A stretch of 64,000 nucleotides of DNA. It comes from Escherichia coli (GTDB taxonomy: Bacteria; Pseudomonadota; Gammaproteobacteria; Enterobacterales; Enterobacteriaceae). The translations under genes were made by a program, and so were the position numbers. Positions within the stretch are counted from its first letter, which is position 1. The number at the start of each line of letters is the position of its first letter. This document shows positions 8,435 to 23,209 of the stretch, in pieces. Under the pieces are notes generated by a model that saw nothing but the letters and a program-made list of their open reading frames with translations, was not told the DNA's origin and did not search any database. The stretch lies in the NCBI RefSeq assembly GCF_003334255.1, contig NZ_QOWU01000005.1. One strand, written 5' to 3'.

Positions 8435-9715
8435 ATGAAATTACTGATTCTGGGCAACCACACTTGCGGCAATCGCGGCGACAGCGCCATCTTGCGCGGC
8501 TTACTTGATGCCATCAACATCCTCAATCCACACGCCGAAGTGGACGTAATGAGCCGCTATCCGGTCAGTTCTTCCTGGCTGCTCAACCGTCCGGTAATGG
8601 GCGATCCGCTGTTCCTGCAAATGAAACAACACAACAGCGCGGCGGGCGTTGTCGGGCGCGTTAAAAAAGTCCTCCGTCGCCGCTATCAGCACCAGGTATT
8701 GCTCTCGCGCGTCACCGACACTGGCAAGCTGCGTAATATCGCCATCGCCCAGGGATTCACCGACTTCGTGCGCTTGCTGTCAGGCTACGACGCCATTATT
8801 CAGGTCGGCGGATCGTTTTTTGTCGATCTCTATGGCGTGCCACAGTTTGAACATGCGCTTTGCACATTTATGGCGAAAAAGCCGCTGTTTATGATTGGTC
8901 ACAGCGTCGGTCCATTCCAGAATGAGCAATTTAACCAACTGGCGAACTACGTTTTTGGTCACTGCGACGCGCTGATCCTGCGCGAATCGGTCAGCCTTGA
9001 TTTGATGAAACGCAGCAATATCACTACCGCAAAAGTCGAACATGGCGTCGATACCGCGTGGCTGGTCGATCACCACACCGAAGATTTCACCGCCAGCTAT
9101 GCCGTTCAACACTGGCTGGACGTTGCCGCACAACAGAAAACGGTGGCCATTACCCTGCGCGAACTGGCACCGTTCGACAAACGTCTCGGCACCACTCAAC
9201 AAGCGTATGAAAAAGCCTTTGCCGGGGTGGTCAATCGCATTCTCGACGAAGGCTATCAGGTTATTGCGCTCTCCACCTGTACGGGTATCGACAGCTATAA
9301 CAAAGACGACCGCATGGTGGCGCTCAACCTGCGCCAGCACATCAGTGATCCTGCCCGTTATCACGTAGTGATGGATGAACTTAACGATCTGGAAATGGGC
9401 AAAATTCTCGGTGCCTGTGAACTCACCGTCGGTACGCGCCTGCACTCTGCCATTATCTCGATGAATTTTGCCACTCCGGCAATTGCCATCAACTACGAAC
9501 ATAAATCCGCCGGGATTATGCAACAGTTGGGACTGCCAGAGATGGCAATTGATATCCGTCATTTATTAGACGGCAGCCTGCAAGCGATGGTTGCGGATAC
9601 CTTAGGCCAGCTTCCGGCGCTGAATGCGCGACTTAGTGAAGCCGTCAGTCGTGAGCGTCAGACAGGAATGCAGATGGTGCAGTCTGTGCTTGAGCGCATC
9701 GGGGAGGTGAAATGA
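8435..9715 (+). CDS. wcaK: colanic acid biosynthesis protein WcaK (putative pyruvyl transferase)
   Basis: 426-aa ORF, MKLLILGNHTCGNRGDSAILRGL…, conserved position. Confidence 0.8.
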   Translation: MKLLILGNHTCGNRGDSAILRGLLDAINILNPHAEVDVMSRYPVSSSWLLNRPVMGDPLFLQMKQHNSAAGVVGRVKKVLRRRYQHQVLLSRVTDTGKLRNIAIAQGFTDFVRLLSGYDAIIQVGGSFFVDLYGVPQFEHALCTFMAKKPLFMIGHSVGPFQNEQFNQLANYVFGHCDALILRESVSLDLMKRSNITTAKVEHGVDTAWLVDHHTEDFTASYAVQHWLDVAAQQKTVAITLRELAPFDKRLGTTQQAYEKAFAGVVNRILDEGYQVIALSTCTGIDSYNKDDRMVALNLRQHISDPARYHVVMDELNDLEMGKILGACELTVGTRLHSAIISMNFATPAIAINYEHKSAGIMQQLGLPEMAIDIRHLLDGSLQAMVADTLGQLPALNARLSEAVSRERQTGMQMVQSVLERIGEVK

Positions 9716-10932
9716 AGGTCGGCTTCTTTTTACTGAAATTCCCGCTGTCGTCGGAAACCTTCGTTCTCAACCAAATTACCGCGTTTATTGATATGGGCTT
9801 TGAGGTGAAGATTGTCGCGCTGCAAAAAGGCGACACCCAGAATACCCACGCGGCATGGACGAAATACAACCTTGCCGCCAGAACCCGCTGGTTACAGGAC
9901 GAACCTACGGGCAAAATAGCGAAACTGCGCCACCGCGCCAGCCAGACCTTACGCGGCATTCATCGTAAAAATACCTGGCAGGCGCTCAACCTCAAACGCT
10001 ATGGTGCCGAGTCGCGGAACCTGATTTTGTCTGCCATTTGTGGTCAGGTCGCAACACCGTTACATGCCGATGTCTTTATCGCTCATTTTGGTCCAGCGGG
10101 GGTAACCGCAGCAAAACTACGCGAACTGGGTGTCATTCGCGGCAAAATTGCCACTATCTTTCACGGTATTGATATCTCCAGTCGGGAAGTTCTCAACCAC
10201 TACACTCCCGAATATCAACAACTGTTTCGCCGTGGCGACCTGATGTTACCGATAAGCGATCTGTGGGCCGGAAGGCTGCAAAAAATGGGCTGCCCCAGAG
10301 AAAAAATCGCCGTATCGCGCATGGGCGTAGATATGACGCGCTTTAGCCCGCGTCCCGTGAAAGCGCCCGCAACACCGCTGGAGATTATTTCCGTCGCACG
10401 CTTAACCGAGAAAAAAGGCCTGCATGTGGCGATCGAAGCCTGCCGGCAGTTGAAAGAGCAGGGCGTGGCATTTCGCTATCGCATCCTCGGCATTGGCCCG
10501 TGGGAACGACGCCTGCGCACGCTCATCGAACAATATCAACTGGAAGATGTGGTGGAGATGCCGGGCTTTAAACCGAGCCATGAAGTGAAAGCGATGCTCG
10601 ACGACGCGGATGTCTTCCTGTTGCCATCGGTAACGGGCGCGGATGGCGATATGGAAGGCATTCCGGTAGCGCTGATGGAAGCGATGGCGGTCGGCATTCC
10701 GGTGGTTTCTACTCTGCATAGCGGAATACCGGAACTGGTGGAGGCCGATAAATCCGGCTGGCTGGTGCCTGAGAACGATGCTCGCGCACTGGCGCAACGA
10801 CTGGCGGCGTTTAGCCAACTGGACACCGACGAACTGGCTCCTGTCGTCAAACGTGCGCGCGAAAAAGTCGAACACGATTTTAACCAGCAGGTGATTAATC
10901 GAGAACTCGCCAGATTGCTGCAGGCTTTATAG
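9712..10932 (+). CDS. wcaL: colanic acid glycosyltransferase WcaL
   Basis: 406-aa ORF, GT4-like C-terminus (…[20 protein letters not shown]…); 4-bp overlap with wcaK. Confidence 0.8.
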
Positions 10933-10942
10933 AGGAGAACGT

Positions 10943-12337
10943 ATGCCATTTAAAAAACTCTCCCGACGCACCTTCCTGACGGCAAGCTCCGCGCTTGCCT
11001 TCCTCCATACCCCTTTCGCTCGCGCACTTCCCGCCCGACAAAGCGTTAACATTAACGACTACAACCCTCACGACTGGATCGCCTCATTTAAACAAGCCTT
11101 CAGCGAAGGGCAAACGGTCTTCGTGCCTGACGGATTGGTTTGTGACAATATCAACACCGGCATCTTTATCCCTCCCGGTAAAACGTTACACATTCTTGGA
11201 AACTTGCGCGGCAACGGCAGAGGGCGATTTGTCTTACAGGACGGCAGCCAGGTGACAGGGGAGGAGGGCGGCAGTATGCATAACATCACCCTGGATGTGC
11301 GCGGCTCTGACTGCACCATCAAAGGTCTGGCGATGAGCGGCTTTAGCCCGGTAACGCAGATTTATATCGGCGGCAAAAACAAACGGGTCATGCGCAACCT
11401 GACCATCGATAACCTCACTGTCAGCCACGCTAATTACGCCATCTTACGCCAGGGATTTCATAATCAGATTATCGGTGCCAACATCACCAACTGTAAGTTC
11501 AGCGACTTACAGGGCGACGCCATCGAATGGAACGTGGCGATTAACGACAGTGATATTTTGATATCTGACCATGTCATCGAGCGCATCAACTGTACCAACG
11601 GCAAAATCAACTGGGGAATCGGCATAGGCCTTGCAGGAAGCACTTACGATAATAATTACCCGGAAGACCAGGCAGTGAAAAACTTTGTCGTGGCGAATAT
11701 CACGGGATCGGATTGTCGGCAGTTGATCCATGTTGAAAATGGCAAACATTTTGTTATCCGTAATATCAAAGCCCGCAATATCACGCCGGATTTCAGTAAG
11801 AAAGCAGGCATTGATAACGCGACAGTTGCTATTTACGGTTGTGACAATTTCGTGATTGATAATATTGAAATGATTAATAGCGCCGGGATGTTAATCGGCT
11901 ATGGGGTAATTAAAGGCAAATATCTCTCGATACCGCAAAATTTCCGAGTGAATAATATTCAACTGGATAATACCCACCTTGCTTACAAATTGCGCGGTAT
12001 CCAAATCTCCGCCGGGAATGCTGTCTCCTTTGTGGCGCTGACTAACATTGAGATGAAGCGTGCGTCGCTGGAGTTACACAACAAGCCGCAACACCTTTTT
12101 ATGCGTAATATCAAGGTAATGCAGGAATCCTCTGTTGGACCAGCATTGAGCATGAACTTTGACATGCGCAAAGACGTTCGCGGCGTCTTTATGGCGAAAA
12201 AAGAAACACTGCTGTCTCTTGCAAATGTTCATGCGGTGAATGAAAAAGGGCAAAGCTCCGTCGATATCGACAGGATAAATCACCATATTGTTAATGTGGA
12301 AAAGATTAACTTTAGATTGCCGGAACGGAGGGAGTAG
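10943..12337 (+). CDS. wcaM: colanic acid biosynthesis protein WcaM
   Basis: 464-aa ORF with N-terminal signal/Tat-like sequence ([13 protein letters not shown]); last gene of the wca cluster. Confidence 0.8.
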
Positions 12338-13663: not shown

Positions 13664-13702
13664 CAGTGCTCTGGTAGCTGTAAAGCCAGGGGCGGTAGCG
13701 TG
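13664..13702 (+). promoter_or_regulatory. JUMPstart element with ops (GGCGGTAGCGTG), RfaH-dependent antitermination site
   Basis: CAGTGCTCTGGTAGCTGTAAAGCCAGGGGCGGTAGCGTG read directly; ops at 13691..13702; located between galF and the O-antigen genes. Confidence 0.8.
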
Positions 13703-13852: not shown

Positions 13853-14338
13853 AATTGAACTTAAAAAATTGATGGAACATATTTCTATTATCCTCGATTA
13901 TAGACAAGCTAGGAAAGTGAAACATAAATTGTTTGATATTCTACTGTTGACTATTTGCGCACTTATTTCTGGTGCAGAAGGCTGAAAAGATATAGATGGT
14001 TTTTGGGAAACGCATCTTGATTTTTTTAACAATATCGTGATTTTGAAAATGGTATTCCTATTCACTATACCATTGCCAGAGTTGTATCCTGTATCAGTTC
14101 TACAAAATTTCATGAGTGTTTTATTAACTGGATGCGTGATTGTCATTCTTAAGATGATAAAGACGTCATTGCAATTGATGGAAAAACGCTCCGGCATTCT
14201 TATGACAAGAGTCGTCGCAGGAGAGCGATTCATGTCATTGGTGCATTCTCAACTATGCACAGTCTGGTCATCGGACAGATCAAGACGGATGAACAGAAAC
14301 TACCTAGCGTCAGTCCTTGCGGGGAGCGGGCTTTCGTA
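13853..14338 (+). pseudogene. H-repeat-associated (ISAs1-family) transposase remnant, frameshifted and internally deleted
   Basis: Translations give [43 protein letters not shown]-stop, later frames …[41 protein letters not shown] joined directly to the C-terminal [16 protein letters not shown]; these match the H-repeat protein family as recalled. Confidence 0.6.
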
Positions 14339-14413: not shown

Positions 14414-15679
14414 GTGGTGAAAACAGATTTGACTGTATTTAAGAATATTATATCGCTATTTAGCATTCGTTTTGCTGGCTACATAATACCTTTAATCACG
14501 TTGCCGTATCTTGTCAAGGTACTTCAACCTGTTGGATTTGGATATTTATCATTTGGTATTGCTGTTTTACAATATTGTACGCTAGTTGTTAATTATGGGT
14601 TTGATCTTTCAGCAACAAGAAAAATTGCACAGAATAGAGAAAATGTGCATTACATCAGCGATATTTTTTGGAATATTCTTTTTTTGCGGTTGTTTATTTC
14701 TCTTGTAGGTTTTTTAGTATTAGTGGTTTTTATCCATTTATTTCCTGATTTGTATCGAATTAAATGGATTTTGCTTTGGGGGTATTTGTCTGTTTTGGGG
14801 ACAGCTCTCTTTCCAATGTGGTTATTTCAGGGGAAAGAACAGCTTGGACGAATATCAGCAGCTCGTATATTTTTACAGATTTCTTGCGTACCTTTATTTT
14901 TTGTTTTTGTAAAAAACACTCAAGATGATTGGGTCGCATCACTAATATATGCTCTACCGCAGTTGTTAATATCAGTAGTGGCAGTATATATCATTCATAA
15001 AAGGAAGTGGATTGTATTAAAAAAAATAAAACTTGCAACAATCAAGAAAGAATTAATAGATGGTTGGCATCTTTTTATATCTACGGCAGCAATTAGTCTC
15101 TATACAACAACCATTACTGTAGTCTTAGGGATTGTATCAGGTCCCTATAGTGTTGCCATATATACTTCTGCAAATAAAATATTACAGGCGGCTCAGGGGC
15201 TTTATCAACCAATATCCTCTGCATTTTACCCGCGAATAAATAACCTGATGAAAGAAAATAAACAATTAGCATTTAAAACTATAAGAAAACTATTTAAAAT
15301 ACAGTTTGTTATTACTATTTGCATAAGCGTTGGGTTGTTTTTGTTTTCTAATATTGTTGTTGATATTTTATACGGTGATGATTATCGAAATGCGGCATTA
15401 ATTCTTCAGCTATTATCACCTATTCCTATAGTTGTGGGATGTAGTAACATTTTTGGAATACAAATATTATTAACATGTGGTTATAAAAAGGAGTTTTCCA
15501 CTATTTTACTGATCTCAGGGCTTATTAATATGATTTTGATATTTCCTCTTTGCTATAAGTTTAACGAGTTTGGAGCAGCATTTTCTGTTTTAATTACAGA
15601 GATATTTGTTACTGTTTCTATGCTGTTTGTGGTTATTCTGAAAAAAATACCGGTTTGGGAGAGTAAGCGTAATGTATGA
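14414..15679 (+). CDS. wzx: O-antigen flippase (Wzx family); likely GTG start
   Basis: 421-aa polytopic membrane ORF, AT-rich; first gene after JUMPstart; RBS AAAAGAGGA upstream. Confidence 0.7.
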   Translation: MVKTDLTVFKNIISLFSIRFAGYIIPLITLPYLVKVLQPVGFGYLSFGIAVLQYCTLVVNYGFDLSATRKIAQNRENVHYISDIFWNILFLRLFISLVGFLVLVVFIHLFPDLYRIKWILLWGYLSVLGTALFPMWLFQGKEQLGRISAARIFLQISCVPLFFVFVKNTQDDWVASLIYALPQLLISVVAVYIIHKRKWIVLKKIKLATIKKELIDGWHLFISTAAISLYTTTITVVLGIVSGPYSVAIYTSANKILQAAQGLYQPISSAFYPRINNLMKENKQLAFKTIRKLFKIQFVITICISVGLFLFSNIVVDILYGDDYRNAALILQLLSPIPIVVGCSNIFGIQILLTCGYKKEFSTILLISGLINMILIFPLCYKFNEFGAAFSVLITEIFVTVSMLFVVILKKIPVWESKRNV

Positions 15680-16760
15680 TTATTTGATTGTCGGCAGCGG
15701 GCTTTTTGGCGCGGTTTGTGCAAATGAGCTTAAAAAAAGAAATGTCAAAATTCTTGTGATAGATAAACGCAACCATGTAGGAGGGAATGTTTATACCGAA
15801 AACATTAATGGAATTCAAGTGCATAAATATGGTGCACATATATTTCATACTAATGATAAGTATATTTGGGAGTATGTAAATAAACTTGTTGAGTTTAATC
15901 GTTTTACAAATTCACCTCTAGCTTATTTTAAAGGGGAACTTTTTAATTTACCATTTAACATGAATACTTTTTATCAGTTGTGGGGAGTGAAAAAACCTTC
16001 AGAAGCTGCCGCTATTATAGAAGAACAACGAAAAGTAATGCTAAAAAAAGAACCTACAAATTTGGAAGAGCAGGCTATTTCACTAGTTGGAGTAGATATC
16101 TATGAGAAATTGATTAAGGGATATACCGAAAAACAGTGGGGACGTAGTTGTAAAGAGTTACCATCCTTCATTATTCGACGACTACCAGTAAGATTTACAT
16201 TTGACAATAATTATTTTTCTGACAAATATCAGGGTATTCCTGTTGGGGGATATACGAATTTAATTGAAAAAATGCTTGAGGGAGTTGAGGTTCATTTAGG
16301 CATTGACTATCTTAAAGAACGCAAGAAATATTCGAAAATTGCAAAAAAAATCATATATACAGGACCGATTGATGAGTATTTTGATAATGTGCTAGGACAG
16401 TTGGAGTATAGGTCATTAAAATTTCAAACAGAAAAAATGGATATTCCTAATTATCAGGGGAATGCAGTGGTTAATTACACTGAAAAAGAAATACCATTTA
16501 CGCGAATTATAGAACATAAGCATTTTGATTTTGTTGAATCTAATTTTACCATAATTACTAAAGAATACCCTAAAGAGTGGAGTAATGGTGATGAGCCATA
16601 CTACCCTATCAATGATGAGAAAAACATGGCTTTATATAGAAAATATAAATCTTTGGCTGATGAGGAAAATGTGATTTTTGGTGGGCGTTTGGCTGAATAT
16701 AAATATTATGACATGCACCAAGTTATTCGGTCTGCCTTAAACTGTGTGAAGCATATTTAA
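15672..16760 (+). CDS. glf: UDP-galactopyranose mutase
   Basis: 362-aa ORF, N-terminal FAD-binding motif MYDYLIVGSGLFGAVCA…, typical Glf length. Confidence 0.9.
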   Translation: MYDYLIVGSGLFGAVCANELKKRNVKILVIDKRNHVGGNVYTENINGIQVHKYGAHIFHTNDKYIWEYVNKLVEFNRFTNSPLAYFKGELFNLPFNMNTFYQLWGVKKPSEAAAIIEEQRKVMLKKEPTNLEEQAISLVGVDIYEKLIKGYTEKQWGRSCKELPSFIIRRLPVRFTFDNNYFSDKYQGIPVGGYTNLIEKMLEGVEVHLGIDYLKERKKYSKIAKKIIYTGPIDEYFDNVLGQLEYRSLKFQTEKMDIPNYQGNAVVNYTEKEIPFTRIIEHKHFDFVESNFTIITKEYPKEWSNGDEPYYPINDEKNMALYRKYKSLADEENVIFGGRLAEYKYYDMHQVIRSALNCVKHI

Positions 16761-16792: not shown

Positions 16793-17995
16793 ATGAAGCT
16801 ATATTATATCTGTTCGGATTTTTATCCTTCTGGCACTGGTTTTGCAATATCGTTTACGAATTTTATACAGTTTATATTAGATTCAAATAAATTCGAGCAT
16901 ATCACGATACTAACTACAAATTCTAAAGCATCTTTGCCTGAAAATTTCAACGAACGTGTTTCATTGCAAACTTTTGATGTCAGAGGTGAGTTGAAGTTAG
17001 CTAGGTACTTTAGATCATCTATTCTTCTTGACTTGTATTCAATATTTAAATATAGACGCATTCTGCATATGTTAAAATGTTGTTGTATTAAGTCTGATGA
17101 TGTATTCTTTTATGAGGAGTTTTATTTTGGCAATCTTTATAAATATTTGAAAAGACGCTTTCCTTGTAATAAGCATATAATACGAGTGCATGGGACAATG
17201 CCAGAGTTTGTGACGTTTGATCGTTCAAATAGATATAGAAAAATATTATTTAAACAAGCTTTAGAGCTAAAAAACAATAGAGAAAATAAAATAACAATTG
17301 CAACGACAACATCTTTTTATATTGATTTCATTAATACTCATATACTTAAAAATCAGTATGGAACAATATGTAATGTAGATTATATTTTTCTACCAAATAG
17401 TATATATAGTAATAAAAATATTCCGCAGACACAAAAGTCAGAAAATATGTCCAATTCTTTAACTTTATTGCAGTTGGGGAGAATGGATAAAGGTGGGTAC
17501 TTCCAAAAAGGGTTTGATGATACGATTAAAGCATTAAATTATATTAATTCAGATGTTTTTTTATCCCATCGGATACGTCTTGTTACTATTGGTAGTGGTG
17601 AGAAAAAAAAATATTTTAAAGATAAAATGAGGGATCTAAAAAACATAGCATTTGAACATTATGAAAATATAAATAATGAAGCTGTTAATGACTTAATAAT
17701 GCAGGCTGATGTTATACTCTTACCATCAAGATGTGAAGGTATGTCAATGTTTGCAGTCGAAGCTATTTCGCTAGGAAAACCAATAATTACGACAAGAAAT
17801 ACTGGAGTTGATGATATATGTATTGAAGGAGTTAATAGTCTGAAATTTGATATGTTTAATTATGTTGAGTATGCACAAGCTATCGAAAAAATAATCAAAG
17901 AACCGCATTTGATTAGACAAATGGGATATAATGCTTTTGCTGTTTCAAAAGAAAATGAAAAGAAATTAAAAGCAAATATAGAGGCCTTTTTGTGA
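16793..17995 (+). CDS. glycosyltransferase (GT-B, family 1/4-like)
   Basis: 400-aa AT-rich ORF; C-terminal region …LPSRCEGMSMFAVEAISLGKPIITT… resembles the GT4 E-x7-E region. Confidence 0.6.
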   Translation: MKLYYICSDFYPSGTGFAISFTNFIQFILDSNKFEHITILTTNSKASLPENFNERVSLQTFDVRGELKLARYFRSSILLDLYSIFKYRRILHMLKCCCIKSDDVFFYEEFYFGNLYKYLKRRFPCNKHIIRVHGTMPEFVTFDRSNRYRKILFKQALELKNNRENKITIATTTSFYIDFINTHILKNQYGTICNVDYIFLPNSIYSNKNIPQTQKSENMSNSLTLLQLGRMDKGGYFQKGFDDTIKALNYINSDVFLSHRIRLVTIGSGEKKKYFKDKMRDLKNIAFEHYENINNEAVNDLIMQADVILLPSRCEGMSMFAVEAISLGKPIITTRNTGVDDICIEGVNSLKFDMFNYVEYAQAIEKIIKEPHLIRQMGYNAFAVSKENEKKLKANIEAFL

Positions 17996-18849
17996 TGATT
18001 TATAGATATATATTAAATCTATTTCCTGACACTCTATTTATTAGATTGCGATATTTTAAACGATTTAAGCGTATTTTACACTTGAGAAAACCGAAGCGAT
18101 TTACTGAGAAAATTATGTGGTATAAACTTTTTTATCATGATAATTTGATGACTATCTGCGCAGATAAGTATCGTGTAAGAGAATATATAAAGGAAAAGGG
18201 GTTCGGTGATATATTGGTTCCATTGTTTAAAGTATATAATACTCCAGATGAAATAAAAATTGATGAATTGCCTTGTCAATTTATTTTAAAAGGGAATAAT
18301 GGAAGTGAGACTAATTTAGTTGTTAGGGATAAGAGTAAAATAACCGAGAAGTATATAAGGCATATAGTTTCTGGATGGATGGCTAATAACCAAGTTATTA
18401 CTTTGGGGAAAGAGTGGTGTTATCAGAATATTGAATTTAAGATAACTGTGGAGCAGCTATTAGAATCAGAAGGAGAGGATGGCATTGATGACTATAAATT
18501 TCTTTGTTTTAATGGTCGCGTTCATTATATATGGGTTGATAAAAATCGATTTACAAGCCACACCAGAACTTTTTTTGATCGAGACTGGAATGTGATAAAT
18601 GTAGAATCAGATCATCCAGCTGCTAGTTTTTCTATAGATAAGCCTTGGGGGTTTGAAAAAATGCTACATATCGCTGAAGATATAGGTAAAGATTTCCCAT
18701 TTGCTAGAGTTGATTTTTATAGTGTAAACAAAAAGGTTTATTTTGGTGAGATAACTTTTTATCCATGGAGTGGCATGGTGCAGTTTCAACCAGATAGTTT
18801 TGATTTTGATATGGGTGATAAATTTATTCTGCCAAAAGAGATGTTATAA
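17992..18849 (+). CDS. TupA-like ATP-grasp family protein
   Basis: 285-aa ORF; C-terminal RVDFYSVNKKVYFGEITFYPWSG resembles the TupA-like ATP-grasp family, recognised from memory only. Confidence 0.45.
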   Translation: MMIYRYILNLFPDTLFIRLRYFKRFKRILHLRKPKRFTEKIMWYKLFYHDNLMTICADKYRVREYIKEKGFGDILVPLFKVYNTPDEIKIDELPCQFILKGNNGSETNLVVRDKSKITEKYIRHIVSGWMANNQVITLGKEWCYQNIEFKITVEQLLESEGEDGIDDYKFLCFNGRVHYIWVDKNRFTSHTRTFFDRDWNVINVESDHPAASFSIDKPWGFEKMLHIAEDIGKDFPFARVDFYSVNKKVYFGEITFYPWSGMVQFQPDSFDFDMGDKFILPKEML

Positions 18850-19757
18850 TGAGTAAGTTGTCCGTAATTATGTCTGTATATTCAGAGTCCGAAAAAATGC
18901 TAAGACAATCTATTGATTCTGTATTGAATCAGTCATTTAGGGATTTTGAATTTATCATAGTTAATGATAACCCAGAGAGAATCGAGATAATACAGTTGCT
19001 TCGTTATTATATGGAAAAAGATAATAGGGTTAAGGTATTTTCAAATGAGATCAATAAAGGGTTGACAAAGAGTCTTAATATTGCAGCAAAAAAAAGCAAC
19101 AGTAAATATATTGCCAGAATGGACGCTGATGATATTTCTGATATTACGAGGTTTGATAGACAGTTAGATATACTTGAGAAAAATGATGATATAGATATAT
19201 GTGGTAGTAATGTTAAGGTAATTAATGTCCATGATAATGTTACAGGGCACTATAGGTATCCTGAAAGATCTTCAAAAATAAAGGGGAAGTTATTCTTTCG
19301 TGATTGTCTTTGCCATCCAGCCACAATGTTTCGGCGTTCGTTTTTCATTGAGGTCGGCGGATATAGTGAGGATTTTAAAAAAGCTCAAGACTATGAACTT
19401 TGGATTAAGGCTTTAATAAATGATAAAGGGATATATAATATTCAGACTCCCTTATTATACTATCGTATGCATTCTGAAAATATTTCGACAAAAAATATTG
19501 ATGAACAACATTATTATTCAATAAAGGCAAAAGTACTACTGTATTCATTTTTTATGGATCAGCAGCAATCATTGAAAATCATAGATTATATAGAGGGACA
19601 GCAAGGCAATGTTCATATTATACGTGTGTTAAAATTCTTTTTTGTTTTAGCTGGGCGATTAAATAAAAAAATTAATGGTTTTTCATATATATATTTCTTC
19701 TTTTTATTGGTGAAAAGGTTGATTTACATAAAAATTATAAGACGTGCTATTTTTTAG
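18849..19757 (+). CDS. glycosyltransferase family 2
   Basis: 302-aa ORF; N-terminal SVIMSVYSE…FIIVNDN and DXD-like ARMDADDIS motif. Confidence 0.7.
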   Translation: MSKLSVIMSVYSESEKMLRQSIDSVLNQSFRDFEFIIVNDNPERIEIIQLLRYYMEKDNRVKVFSNEINKGLTKSLNIAAKKSNSKYIARMDADDISDITRFDRQLDILEKNDDIDICGSNVKVINVHDNVTGHYRYPERSSKIKGKLFFRDCLCHPATMFRRSFFIEVGGYSEDFKKAQDYELWIKALINDKGIYNIQTPLLYYRMHSENISTKNIDEQHYYSIKAKVLLYSFFMDQQQSLKIIDYIEGQQGNVHIIRVLKFFFVLAGRLNKKINGFSYIYFFFLLVKRLIYIKIIRRAIF

Positions 19758-19804
19758 TAGAGTTAAAATCCTTTTATTATATCCTCCTTGCAATGAGTTA
19801 TTAA

Positions 19805-21055
19805 ATGAATAACACTTTACGACAGTATAGTTTAGTGCAAGTCTTTATAACAATGTACTGCCTCTTTCCCTTCTATTTTCATAACATATATATTATTCAG
19901 ACTTTTTCTTTATATTCATTAGCACTAAGCTTTGTAGTTTATACGTTTTTCTATAAAGTTAGGTTTGTTTCAAGGTCAGGGGCAATTACAATCCTTGCTA
20001 GCACGACAACATTTTTGATTTTTTTATTTATGAGCATGCTCATTAATTTGTCGAGCGATATGACCTTTGTTTATGAACAAGTTTTTGGTTTTTCTAAGCA
20101 GTTACTATTAGCATTAGTTCCTTTTTGTCTCTATTTTTCGTTCGATAGTGATGATATTAATTACGCAGTACACAGTATTTTATTGTTGTTTATTAGAGCC
20201 ATAAGCTTGTATGTTTTTATTTCTGTTATATTTCTGATACCTGAAGTTAGAAATTATTGGATTGATATTATATATTTTAGTAGTGATCAAAATAAGGAAT
20301 TAATAAATTCTGCTTCATACTATACGCGCTTTGGTTTGCAGGGATTTTCTGGATTCAGACATGCTATTCTATGCGCGATTGCTCTAATTTTTAGTATATA
20401 TTTATTTATGTGTGGTTATAAAAAAATAAAAAATTATTGGATGAGTGTGTTTCTTGTTTGTATTGGGTGTTTCCTATACGGCCGTATTGCTATAGCTGTG
20501 ATACTATGTATAACTTTAATATCATTATTTTATTTATTATGTAAGTTTGAAAAACTTTATTTTATATTTATTGTTTGCTTATGCGTGGGGACGATTGCAT
20601 GTGTAGTATATATGAATATTGATTATATTCAGGATAGTTATTCATTAGCTTGGATTTTCGAACCATTAATAAATTTTATTAATGAAGGTCAGTTTACAAG
20701 TCATTCGACAAATGATTTATCCAGCATGTATATAATGCCGAATGAAAATACAATGTTGTTAGGTGATGGGAAATATACTAATCATGATGGAAGTTATTAT
20801 ATGCATACGGATGTTGGATTTTTAAGGCCTGTTTTTTTTGGAGGTATTTTTTTTGTTTTCTTTTACTATATGATGTTAATATTGCCACTTATATTAATTA
20901 TTAAGAATTCTGGGCTTGAACGAAGAAATATATTAACATTGTTTTTGGCTTTGGCTTTGATTGTTTTTGAGTTGAAGGGAGAGTCATTTATATCATTTTC
21001 TGCAATAATTTTTTCTTTCATACTCATTCCTATTATTTGTAAAAGGTTAAATTGA
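19805..21055 (+). CDS. wzy: O-antigen polymerase (Wzy)
   Basis: 416-aa very hydrophobic, multi-TM, low-complexity AT-rich ORF inside the O-antigen cluster; no recognisable enzymatic motif. Confidence 0.6.
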   Translation: MNNTLRQYSLVQVFITMYCLFPFYFHNIYIIQTFSLYSLALSFVVYTFFYKVRFVSRSGAITILASTTTFLIFLFMSMLINLSSDMTFVYEQVFGFSKQLLLALVPFCLYFSFDSDDINYAVHSILLLFIRAISLYVFISVIFLIPEVRNYWIDIIYFSSDQNKELINSASYYTRFGLQGFSGFRHAILCAIALIFSIYLFMCGYKKIKNYWMSVFLVCIGCFLYGRIAIAVILCITLISLFYLLCKFEKLYFIFIVCLCVGTIACVVYMNIDYIQDSYSLAWIFEPLINFINEGQFTSHSTNDLSSMYIMPNENTMLLGDGKYTNHDGSYYMHTDVGFLRPVFFGGIFFVFFYYMMLILPLILIIKNSGLERRNILTLFLALALIVFELKGESFISFSAIIFSFILIPIICKRLN

Positions 21056-22146
21056 TGAGAATATCATTAGAAGAGAATTCAGTAGTTTTTATTCTATATC
21101 AATTTCATATTGGCGGTGTCGAAAGTGCACTAATAAATCTGCTTGAGAATATTAAAAAGAAGAGAGTATATTTGATCTTTGCAATGAATAAGATCAACAA
21201 TGAACTCCTAAAAAAAATTCCTCATAACGTCAAAATAATTGGACTAGGAATAAATAATAAAAATATATGTCATTTAATTGGTTATACACGTAGATTAAGC
21301 AAACGATATGATTTTAGTAGAACACACATTGTTAATTTTTCTGATACCCTATCAACTCTAATAATTCAATATTCTTTGAATGCAAAATTAAAGACATCGT
21401 GGGTTCATTGCAATCCATTAACTTTGATAAACTCTCGTTCATTTCAGTTATATAAGTATTTATTAGTTAGAAATGATAAAATAGTTTGTTTGTGTGAATC
21501 ACAGAAAAATCTCTTAATAAAGGTGATGCCCAAAGCGGAAAAAAAAGTCACCATTATATATAATTGTGTTGATGCTGATATCCTTTCAAAAGGAGCTCAA
21601 GAAAAAGTTGACGTTGATTATAAATATATAATAAAAGTTGCAAGATTTGATGAAAGAACAAAAGATTTCATTACTCTTATAGATGCATATTGTAAACTAC
21701 CTAAAGAAACACAAGATACGTATAAACTTGTATTATTAGGTGATGGACCTGATCTCGAAAATGTTAGAAATTATACAAGAAAAAAAAACAACATGCAAAA
21801 CATATTTTTTCCGGGTAAAGATGTCAATCCTTTTAAATGGATTAAACATTCGCAGTTCTTGGTGCACTCCTCAACATCAGAGGGCTTTTCTCTTGTTCTG
21901 TTGGAGGCCATGTTATTAGGTAAAGTTGTGATTGCATCTGATTGTAATTGTGGTCCTTCTGATATACTGGATAATGGGAATGCAGGATTCCTATTCAATG
22001 TTGGTGATGTTGATAGCTTAACCTGTATTATGCAAAATTTATTAGTTAATCAAGACATCATCAATATATATACCAATCGCTCTCTTGTTAGAGGCGTTGA
22101 ATTACAGTTGAAAGCAAATAGGCAGGTTAAGGAGTATTTTTTGTGA
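21052..22146 (+). CDS. glycosyltransferase family 4
   Basis: 364-aa ORF; …HSSTSEGFSLVLLEAMLLGKVVIASDCNCGPSDIL… GT4 signature. Confidence 0.65.
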   Translation: MMRISLEENSVVFILYQFHIGGVESALINLLENIKKKRVYLIFAMNKINNELLKKIPHNVKIIGLGINNKNICHLIGYTRRLSKRYDFSRTHIVNFSDTLSTLIIQYSLNAKLKTSWVHCNPLTLINSRSFQLYKYLLVRNDKIVCLCESQKNLLIKVMPKAEKKVTIIYNCVDADILSKGAQEKVDVDYKYIIKVARFDERTKDFITLIDAYCKLPKETQDTYKLVLLGDGPDLENVRNYTRKKNNMQNIFFPGKDVNPFKWIKHSQFLVHSSTSEGFSLVLLEAMLLGKVVIASDCNCGPSDILDNGNAGFLFNVGDVDSLTCIMQNLLVNQDIINIYTNRSLVRGVELQLKANRQVKEYFL

Positions 22147-23102
22147 GTAGTGTATCTGTATGCATTGTGACTTTTAATCGTAAAAATGACCTGTTGAGAT
22201 GTCTAGATAATGTTCTTAAACAGTCACACGTTGTCAGTAATATCCTTATATATGATAATGCATCTACTGATGGGACCACTCGGTTTCTGCTTAGTAAATA
22301 TTGCGCTATATTATCTCCATCAAATATTCCTCAAAAGATTGCAACCCTAAATGACATAAATATCTGGCTTGTTACAGCGACAGAGAACTCTGGAGGTGCT
22401 GGCGGGTTTCATTATTCTGTAAAATTATCTCGTGAAATATTCGATACTGATTATTATTGGTTAATGGATGACGATGGTTACCCTTCTAAAGATTGTTTAA
22501 ATATTCTTATGCAATATGCAGAGACGCATAATTCTGATTATGTTATGCCTGTTAGTATAGATATTGATAATAATGAACAGCTATCTTGGCCAACACGAAA
22601 AAAAAACCATGCAAAAACTGAATGTTATAAGGAATTATATGAGTCGTGGGGAGATGTTATGGATTATGTTACACCTTTTAATGGTTCTCTCTTAAGTAAA
22701 AAATGTATTGATAGTGTTGGGTATGTGAATAAAGATTTTTTTATTTGGGGGGATGAGTATGAACATTACTGGAGATGCAAAAAAGCAGGAATTCATCCTG
22801 TAACAATTATGAATGCAAAATTCTATCACCCGTCACAAAAGTTACCTCTTCAGCCATGTTTTTTTGGATTGATTAAATTACCCTATGTCGATTCTCCATT
22901 ACGTATGGTATGCCTAGTTCGAAATTATACATATATTTATAAAAAATATGACTCAAAATTAAAAATAATTCTCAAGCTTATATCTTATAGTTGGTTTTTC
23001 TTAATAACAAGAAAGCTTGATGTTAAAGGTTTTGTCTTATACTTAAAAAGTGTTCTTGATGGATTAAGAAATGATTTTACAAGACATAGAGATTTTTTAT
23101 AA
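22143..23102 (+). CDS. glycosyltransferase family 2 (GGAGGF-type)
   Basis: 319-aa ORF; SVCIVTFNR…ENSGGAGGFHYS…WLMDDDGYP motifs; paralogous to the next ORF. Confidence 0.6.
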   Translation: MSSVSVCIVTFNRKNDLLRCLDNVLKQSHVVSNILIYDNASTDGTTRFLLSKYCAILSPSNIPQKIATLNDINIWLVTATENSGGAGGFHYSVKLSREIFDTDYYWLMDDDGYPSKDCLNILMQYAETHNSDYVMPVSIDIDNNEQLSWPTRKKNHAKTECYKELYESWGDVMDYVTPFNGSLLSKKCIDSVGYVNKDFFIWGDEYEHYWRCKKAGIHPVTIMNAKFYHPSQKLPLQPCFFGLIKLPYVDSPLRMVCLVRNYTYIYKKYDSKLKIILKLISYSWFFLITRKLDVKGFVLYLKSVLDGLRNDFTRHRDFL

Positions 23103-23209
23103 TACAGGTTGATACATTTCATAAAAACATAATGATAATGGATAATCAATTTGCATCTTAATTATTTTTACTACCTTCCCTGCTCGATAAATATGTTTAT
23201 AGGGTTAAT

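Follow-up and report, generated by a model that had tools for sequence, protein, structure and literature searches.

The wfdG gene within its O-antigen locus

The window, a stretch of 64,000 nucleotides of Escherichia coli DNA, contains an island of about 30% GC with galF on one side and gnd on the other, in which wfdG is embedded (Table 1). Over 10.8 kb, this island is 99.5-100% identical to three genomes with wzx and wzy annotated as 'O167 family'; it is the O-antigen locus of E. coli O167 and Shigella boydii, which bears out the placement of the gene in an O-antigen cluster by an earlier, sequence-only reading of the same DNA. All cluster genes besides wfdG are wzx, wzy, glf or glycosyltransferase genes. 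The spacer before an O-antigen operon is the usual site of the JUMPStart/RfaH signal, and the ops element listed there is assigned by position, not by count, since three matches occur in the window where chance alone would give 1.2. Of the neighbouring sugar-nucleotide genes, ugd provides UDP-GlcA, from which the uronic acid presumed to carry the alanine discussed below is made, and the SDR epimerase is probably a Gla-like UDP-glucuronate 4-epimerase making UDP-GalA, its solved Bacillus cereus relative 6zl6/6zla being a UDP-GlcA 4-epimerase. The epimerase gene is found in 293 of 5426 E. coli genomes, and in all three with the O167 cluster.

Table 1. Positions of wfdG, of the surrounding O167-type cluster and of neighbouring features in the window
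Feature	Position	Strand	Basis or remark
ops element GGCGGTAG	13691..13698	+	galF-wzx spacer
wzx, O167-family O-unit flippase	14414..15679	+	annotation of matching locus
glf, UDP-galactopyranose mutase (makes UDP-Galf)	15672..16760	+	TIGR00031, 465 bits, over curated cut-off
GT4 glycosyltransferase	16793..17995	+	TGA stop overlaps wfdG ATG by one base
wfdG, TupA-like ATP-grasp amidoligase, 284 aa	17995..18849	+	PF14305 match
GT2 glycosyltransferase, EpsE/TuaG-like	18849..19757	+	ATG overlaps wfdG TAA stop by one base
wzy, O167-family O-antigen polymerase	19805..21055	+	annotation of matching locus
GT4-type glycosyltransferase	21052..22146	+	
GT2, resembles galactofuranosyltransferase GlfT1	22143..23102	+	NF050113, E = 3.5e-39, under curated cut-off
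GT2, resembles GlfT1	23210..24112	+	NF050113, E = 2.6e-22, under curated cut-off
ugd, UDP-glucose 6-dehydrogenase	25820..26986	+	NF011631, 798 bits, over cut-off
NAD-dependent SDR epimerase	27052..28056	-	solved relatives 5u4q (E = 1.5e-190) and B. cereus 6zl6/6zla (E = 3e-43)

The open reading frame reported earlier, 285 codons on the + strand at 17992..18849, was confirmed with a small correction. Position 17992 is a mechanical ORF start at a GTG, and translation more likely begins at the ATG at 17995, giving 284 residues, since the A of this codon is the last base of the TGA stop of the upstream gene (ttgTGATGatt) and the same start is used by RefSeq in strain 214-4. The one-base overlap between the GT4 stop and the wfdG start suggests translational coupling with this glycosyltransferase, a possible uronosyltransferase. 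At the other end of the gene, the GT2 start at 18849 is the one used by RefSeq in two genomes, with a later start in 214-4.

The encoded protein is identical in sequence to an entry that bears both the name 'WfdG [Shigella boydii]' and the name 'ATP-dependent carboxylate-amine ligase [E. coli]', and the gene is thus already named and annotated as an amidoligase (WfdG of S. boydii and E. coli O167: UniProt B5L3W0; RefSeq WP_001757500.1). The identical protein is present on 199 contigs, and that of strain 214-4 differs in a single residue (K222R). At the DNA level, a blastn scan reaching to about 65-70% identity, and so not to divergent paralogues such as in O91 (glycine amide) or O110 (allothreonine amide), found wfdG in 3 of the 5426 E. 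coli genomes, always together with the O167 cluster. In two genomes the RefSeq annotation comprises only 244 residues. That the 244-residue entries, on more than 100 contigs, represent truncated natural knock-out alleles was rejected: apart from one synonymous change the DNA is intact, and it is the start call of the pipeline that differs. Had it been real, a truncation might have accounted for a strain labelled O169:H41.

A TupA-like ATP-grasp protein and its relatives

WfdG is a full-length TupA-like ATP-grasp protein, with a resemblance far beyond chance. The HMM search returned PF14305 (ATPgrasp_TupA) at E = 7.3e-42 and 144 bits, with positions 1-240 of the 241 in the model aligned to residues 39-278, as the sole Pfam match. 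No glycosyltransferase, Wzx flippase or Wzy polymerase domain was found with Pfam and NCBIfam, no asparagine-synthase or glutamine amidotransferase domain with Pfam, and no NCBIfam model matched even at E <= 1. Thus, both the family and the statement that the protein is neither glycosyltransferase, flippase nor polymerase stand as originally proposed, as does the motif near the C-terminus on which the proposal was built, RVDFY…FGEITFYPWSG, which occupies residues 238-260 in the numbering from the ATG (RVDFYSVNKKVYFGEITFYPWSG). As a PDB sequence search yielded only a marginal match to synapsin (E = 0.74) and no solved TupA-like enzyme, the fold was assigned by structure comparison using a predicted model, according to which WfdG has an ATP-grasp fold.

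Across WfdG and its relatives (30 homologues), 41 columns are invariant, among them K99, E140-W141, E153, D166-Y167-K168, R185, R238-x-D240 and G251-E252-x-T254-F255. The charged residues expected for the binding of Mg-ATP and an acyl phosphate, namely a lysine in the central strand, a hinge glutamate, R-x-D and E-x-T/N, are conserved as K99, E153, R238, D240, E252 and T254, making R238, D240 and E252 a putative Mg-ATP/acyl-phosphate site. These roles are assigned by motif analogy, because a profile alignment with E. coli DdlB did not relate the two sequences (probability 0.06, no detectable relationship). The classical ATP-grasp ligases, i.e. D-alanine-D-alanine ligase, LysX/ArgX, RimK and BacD, show 10-17% identity to WfdG. 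Their N-terminal pre-ATP-grasp domain is missing from WfdG, which in its place has 40 strongly basic, helical residues with invariant positions, and while their carboxylate substrate is an amino acid, that of WfdG would be a sugar acid. AsnB-type amidotransferases such as WbpS and MoeH5 (the latter cited in PMC13419641) reach a similar end product, in which the carboxylate of a glycan uronic acid is amidated. These are, however, unrelated to WfdG in fold and employ adenylation chemistry.

The biochemically characterised member of the family is Cj1438C, residues 453-776 of the capsule amidoligase of Campylobacter jejuni NCTC 11168 (UniProt Q0P8H6), itself a PF14305 protein (E = 1.3e-37). It is related to WfdG at 28% identity over 216 residues by BLASTP (E = 4e-23) and with a probability of 99.85% over 252 columns by hhalign (E = 6.6e-31), and the invariant residues from K99 to F255 listed above are aligned and identical in it, so that the two proteins have the lysine and the EW, E, DYK, R, RVD and GE(I/L)TF motifs in common. 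Cj1438C amidates a GlcA glycoside at its C6 carboxylate in an ATP-dependent reaction, does not accept UDP-GlcA, and uses serinol phosphate and ethanolamine phosphate as amines (PMC11800397). Both proteins come from surface-polysaccharide loci, and the chemistry proposed for WfdG, ATP-dependent C6 amidation of a uronic acid within a glycan, is alike. There are also differences. Cj1438C is joined to a GT2 domain, while WfdG is a free-standing protein of 284 residues; Cj1438C belongs to an ABC-transporter capsule pathway, WfdG to a Wzx/Wzy O-antigen pathway; and amidation by Cj1438C is followed by a phosphatase step, while the O167 cluster is devoid of a phosphatase and the amine of WfdG is presumably L-alanine. 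In addition, the C-terminal YPWSG...PDxFD block is invariant in the WfdG subfamily, but not conserved in Cj1438C.

Closer relatives are found in syntenic clusters of Edwardsiella tarda and of a third source (locus L004), with orthologues of 68-73% identity and, in both, the same arrangement of GT4 gene to ligase and ligase to GT2 gene. In E. tarda the whole O167-type cluster is kept gene for gene (wzx-glf-GT4-ligase-GT2-wzy-GT4-GT2-GT2, with ugd and epimerases nearby), and the WfdG orthologue (P0003, 68% identical) is among its best-conserved genes. According to the title of a paper cited in PMC5485987, E. tarda PCM 1150 has an L-alanine amide of GlcA. While this amide is on GlcA, the epimerase beside the cluster in E. 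coli would suggest GalA, and the sequenced E. tarda serotype may differ from the published one. More widely, the ligase gene is surrounded by Wzx/Wzy, glycosyltransferase and sugar-nucleotide genes in all nine homologue loci and in the window cluster, with a UDP-sugar dehydrogenase within 10 kb in five of the eight long loci (window included). The Firmicutes homologues, too, reside in Wzx/Wzy polysaccharide loci, where two or three ligase paralogues alternate one-to-one with glycosyltransferases. A mobile module of GT4 and ligase was considered and rejected, the Firmicutes GT4s being about 25% identical to that of the window and no nearer to it than unrelated GT4s. Substrates within the family may not be confined to glycans: CfmP, a Klebsiella member, reportedly modifies FimA, a fimbrial protein, and does so without involvement of surface polysaccharides (PMC13419641). 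For WemR of Proteus mirabilis and further TupA-like ligases, the addition of amino acids to surface polysaccharides has been predicted (Iyer et al., 2009, as cited in PMC13419641); going by these descriptions, which are predictions only, WemR resembles WfdG in family and in predicted role, namely that of placing amino acids on O antigens that are rich in uronic acid amides.

Probable assignment of the O167 alanine to WfdG

What can be deduced from this about the role of WfdG? The O167 antigen, which occurs in enterotoxigenic and enteroinvasive E. coli and is kin to a Shigella boydii antigen, is named in a passage of a 2019 review as containing amide-linked L-alanine, a substituent described chemically by Linnerborg et al. 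(1997) as cited there, and given in that passage without a gene assignment (PMC7685785); this statement concerns serogroup O167 in general rather than the strain of the window. A literature search for O167 together with sugar names yielded nothing further on the sugar bearing the alanine, and one for the name 'WfdG' returned no experiments. The expectation of the sequence-only reading that the family attaches non-sugar substituents and that the O unit is chemically unusual agrees with the glucuronate amides formed by Cj1438C (PMC11800397) and with the alanine for which the O167 group is named. The interpretation was thus right but not new, as the gene had been named and annotated and the substituent described. 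With all of this already public, the new part is the assignment of the gene to the substituent, which is well supported without being a discovery. Since the remaining genes of the cluster all encode flippase, polymerase, Glf or glycosyltransferases, WfdG is the sole candidate for the alanine step.

We therefore consider it likely that wfdG of the O167/S. boydii cluster encodes a cytoplasmic ATP-grasp carboxylate-amine ligase that links L-alanine to a uronic acid within the O unit, with a lipid-linked intermediate as the probable acceptor. In the proposed reaction, WfdG would bind Mg-ATP and phosphorylate a hexuronic acid in the O unit at its C6 carboxylate, the residue being GalA or GlcA produced via ugd and the neighbouring Gla-like epimerase, to form an acyl phosphate, which would then be attacked by the amino group of free L-alanine to yield a uronoyl-L-alanine amide, ADP and Pi. 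By analogy with Cj1438C, amidation would most likely follow the transfer of the uronic acid onto the undecaprenyl-diphosphate-linked O unit. It would take place on the cytoplasmic face of the inner membrane, ahead of flipping by Wzx and polymerisation by Wzy. A point against an alanine ligase is that Cj1438C, at only 28% identity, takes phosphorylated amino alcohols rather than an amino acid.

The same product would result if WfdG amidated UDP-GalA or UDP-GlcA and the UDP-uronoyl-L-alanine were then transferred by a glycosyltransferase. Family, fold and cluster evidence fit this route equally well, ugd and the Gla-like epimerase adjoin the cluster, and nucleotide-level routes are proposed in part of the 2019 review for the primary amides UDP-GalNAcAN and UDP-GalA6N (PMC7685785). 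However, the only characterised member of the family rejects UDP-GlcA and works on the glycoside after transfer (PMC11800397), the alternation of ligases with glycosyltransferases in Firmicutes suggests stepwise modification of the growing chain, and the basic, helical N-terminus of WfdG would fit a membrane-proximal substrate, which together render amidation of the nucleotide sugar improbable.

A further departure from the assignment would be an active ligase that attaches another amine, or acts on a protein or another envelope polymer, with the O167 alanine added by an enzyme encoded elsewhere. The diversity of TupA-like substrates, from the amino alcohol phosphates of Cj1438C (PMC11800397) to FimA for CfmP (PMC13419641), gives room for this, as amino-acid specificity is unreadable from the WfdG sequence. 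We nevertheless judge it very unlikely: wfdG lies inside the O-antigen operon with its start and stop overlapping both flanking glycosyltransferase genes, is co-inherited with the whole cluster in Escherichia/Shigella, Edwardsiella and the third source, and occurs in E. coli, at the DNA level, solely with the O167 cluster; moreover, one cluster gene lacking an assigned role is matched by one antigen substituent lacking an assigned gene. That the reading frame is an inactive relic or a product of chance is already refuted. While DNA of about 30% GC permits long chance ORFs, short antisense ORFs are present and two genomes carry the 244-residue annotation, this stands against the Pfam match, the identical protein on 199 contigs, the orthologues in syntenic clusters and the invariant columns, and the shorter forms reflect a choice of start on intact DNA.

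Implications for the O167 antigen and the TupA-like family

An O antigen changes in charge and in epitope when its uronic acids carry amino-acid amides, and O167 serotyping sera, as well as any O-antigen vaccine, therefore probably recognise the alanine as part of their target. Tied to one small gene, it would offer a clean genetic handle for studies of serology, phage recognition and immune evasion, and WfdG is a candidate enzyme for the chemo-enzymatic decoration of glycans. Beyond the ligase function that we favour, a more far-reaching scenario is tentative and, on balance, doubtful: WfdG may become the first TupA-like ligase shown to act with a free proteinogenic amino acid, L-alanine, at a lipid-linked O unit, and the amide may constitute an obligatory checkpoint, such that the next glycosyltransferase, Wzx or Wzy accepts the amidated unit only. 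If this were true, the subfamily of WfdG and its Edwardsiella and Firmicutes relatives would represent a toolbox of residue-specific 'amino-acid writers', of use in the engineering of uronic acid glycans and glycoconjugate vaccines.

Setting and extent of wfdG

What can be discerned from its surroundings about wfdG? The gene lies in an island of low GC content (about 28-33%, against about 50-55% on both sides) that is bounded by galF and gnd and follows the colanic acid genes; the order here is ops element, wzx, glf, GT4, wfdG, GT2, wzy, GT4, GT2, GT2, gnd, ugd and a divergent SDR epimerase gene. With wcaK, wcaL and wcaM directly upstream of galF, and gnd, ugd, wzzB and hisIE on the downstream side, this is the standard setting of the chromosomal O-antigen locus of E. 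coli. Three complete E. coli genomes carry this island, 10.8 kb long, at 100%, 99.9% and 99.5% identity, and at the DNA level wfdG is present in only 3 of 5426 complete E. coli genomes, each time within the O167 cluster. Exact-sequence look-up returns the protein on 199 contigs as 'WfdG [Shigella boydii]' or 'ATP-dependent carboxylate-amine ligase [E. coli]'; it agrees at every residue with the WfdG already catalogued for the O167 / S. boydii cluster, and UniProt B5L3W0, 'WfdG' of E. coli, is a one-residue variant.

Features of the O-antigen region (window coordinates)
Feature	Position	Strand	Location
wcaK, wcaL, wcaM (colanic acid)	within 8435-12337		directly upstream of galF
ops element	13691-13698
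Degenerate ISAs1-family transposase remnant	13854-14296		galF-wzx interval, just downstream of the ops element
Glycosyltransferase genes (n=5)	16793-24112
wfdG frame, from GTG	17992-18849	+
GT2 gene downstream of wfdG	18849-19757
SDR epimerase	27052-28056	-	between ugd and wzzB

The open reading frame described by the sequence-only reading is present, with 285 codons from GTG, and contains the C-terminal motif quoted there, as RVDFYSVNKKVYFGEITFYPWSG. However, the ATG at 17995, giving 284 residues, is the more likely start, since RefSeq uses it in strain 214-4 and its A is the last base of the upstream glycosyltransferase's TGA stop (ttgTGATGatt). The ATG of the downstream glycosyltransferase likewise overlaps the wfdG stop codon (ttaTAATGagt), so that the gene is tightly packed in an operon; antisense to it are only short open reading frames of 67 and 79 residues, in AT-rich sequence. 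RefSeq calls differ, with 284 residues in 214-4 and 244 in two further O167-type genomes, L009 and L010 (10216-10950 in both). The 244-residue entries, found for many contigs, are not truncated alleles: the DNA is intact with a single synonymous difference, and the shorter form is therefore a later start call at Met41, an annotation inconsistency rather than a mutation. That call loses 40 residues, among them R26, P33, R35 and K39, whose invariance across 30 homologues supports the 284-residue form. The start of the following GT2 gene is called at 18897 in 214-4 and at 18849 in the other two genomes; orthologues in Edwardsiella tarda and in the homologous locus L004, which begin at the overlap with the ligase stop, support 18849.

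Each of the three O167-cluster genomes has the transposase remnant, which may be a scar left when the cluster was acquired; related ISAs1/ISEc1 sequences adjoin galF in many other E. coli. The 99.5%-identical cluster belongs to L009 (NZ_CP062824.1), deposited as O169:H41. As ST182, mostly O169:H41, includes an O167:H41 clade (PMC8454413), this label is accounted for, and is probably wrong or inherited from the lineage name.

Probable ligase chemistry and the alanine substituent

A guide to function is the C-terminal domain of Campylobacter jejuni Cj1438 (Cj1438C; sequence from the supplement of PMC11800397), which in vitro uses ATP to couple serinol phosphate or ethanolamine phosphate, through an amide, to a glucuronic acid glycoside at its C6 carboxylate (PMC11800397). 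Cj1438C matches PF14305 (E = 1.3e-37), the window protein (BLASTP E = 4e-23, 28% identity over 216 residues) and the family profile (hhalign probability 99.85%, E = 6.6e-31, 252 columns). In the alignment it shares the invariant K99, E140-W141, E153, D166-Y167-K168, R185, R238-x-D240 and G251-E252-x-T254-F255 of WfdG. WfdG passes each PF14305 membership test that is possible in silico. NCBIfam holds no model for WfdG, and a sequence search of solved structures returned nothing related beyond a marginal synapsin match. Judged by this comparison, WfdG would work like Cj1438C.

A 2019 review, in its treatment of non-sugar constituents of E. coli O antigens, includes amide-linked amino acids and names L-alanine for O167, crediting Linnerborg et al. 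1997 (PMC7685785). Exactly one reported substituent of the antigen is beyond the reach of the cluster's other genes, and exactly one gene, wfdG, is neither flippase, polymerase, sugar-nucleotide enzyme nor glycosyltransferase. E. tarda and L004 retain the complete cluster gene for gene; WfdG is 68-73% identical there, glf 76-79% and the glycosyltransferases 48-66%, indicating a constraint on WfdG at least equal to that on its neighbours. This one-to-one match, the demonstrated chemistry of the family and the conservation pattern make WfdG, with high probability, the L-alanine:uronate amidoligase. In L004, 5602-7711, which encodes the 73%-identical homologue, the gene order is that of O167 except that wzy is missing between GT2 and the second GT4; its polymerase must lie elsewhere or past the end of the 9.8-kb contig.

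Thus the proposal, made from the sequence alone, of a TupA-like ATP-grasp ligase adding a non-sugar substituent is borne out by the Cj1438C homology, the PF14305 tests and the O167 alanine. It is not new: the gene is already named and annotated as an amidoligase, the alanine was described in 1997, and amidation of surface polysaccharides by a TupA-like ligase is established biochemically for Cj1438C (PMC11800397), having been predicted in 2009 for the wider family, as cited in PMC13419641.

Supply of the O unit

The ugd gene is a source of UDP-GlcA. The SDR epimerase is nearly identical to the K. pneumoniae structure 5u4q (E = 1.5e-190), deposited as 'dTDP-glucose 4,6-dehydratase'; next closest are the Bacillus cereus chains 6zl6/6zla, a UDP-glucuronate 4-epimerase, and the enzyme of the window probably supplies UDP-GalA. 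Its gene occurs in only 293 of 5426 complete E. coli genomes, yet none of the three that have the O167 cluster lacks it, suggesting that UDP-GalA is needed, although these three are not independent, since the whole stretch may have been transferred together. Galactofuranose in the unit is implied by glf and two GlfT1-like GT2 genes. The review, where it treats O167, counts one glycosyltransferase more than the unit requires (PMC7685785); as all five are kept in E. tarda and L004, the 'extra' one is probably functional.

Stage of action and the wider family

Because it depends on ATP, the reaction must take place in the cytoplasm, and hence before Wzx flips the unit. The main rival to a lipid-linked substrate is that the alanine amide is made at the nucleotide-sugar level. 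However, Cj1438C does not use UDP-GlcA (PMC11800397), so that its amidation comes after glycosyl transfer. This rejection, the alternation of ligase paralogues with glycosyltransferase genes in Firmicutes, and the N-terminus of WfdG, which is basic and helical, contains invariant residues and may keep the enzyme close to the membrane, tip the balance slightly towards WfdG amidating the uronic acid on the lipid-linked intermediate.

The Firmicutes homologues are roughly 50% identical to WfdG, and two or three such paralogues occur in the order initiating transferase, GT2, ligase, GT4, ligase, GT4, (polymerase), (ligase), flippase, UDP-sugar dehydrogenase, epimerase. The loci (L005, L011-L014) are capsule/EPS loci of Cytobacillus, Exiguobacterium, Sporosarcina and Aerococcus and a metagenomic contig, with 2-3 TupA-like ligases each; that of Sporosarcina has an extra PF14397 ATP-grasp gene. 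A mobile two-gene module of upstream GT4 and ligase is ruled out, as the neighbouring Firmicutes GT4s are only about 25% identical to that of the window. The repeated ligases predict Firmicutes polysaccharides that would carry several differently amidated uronic acids.
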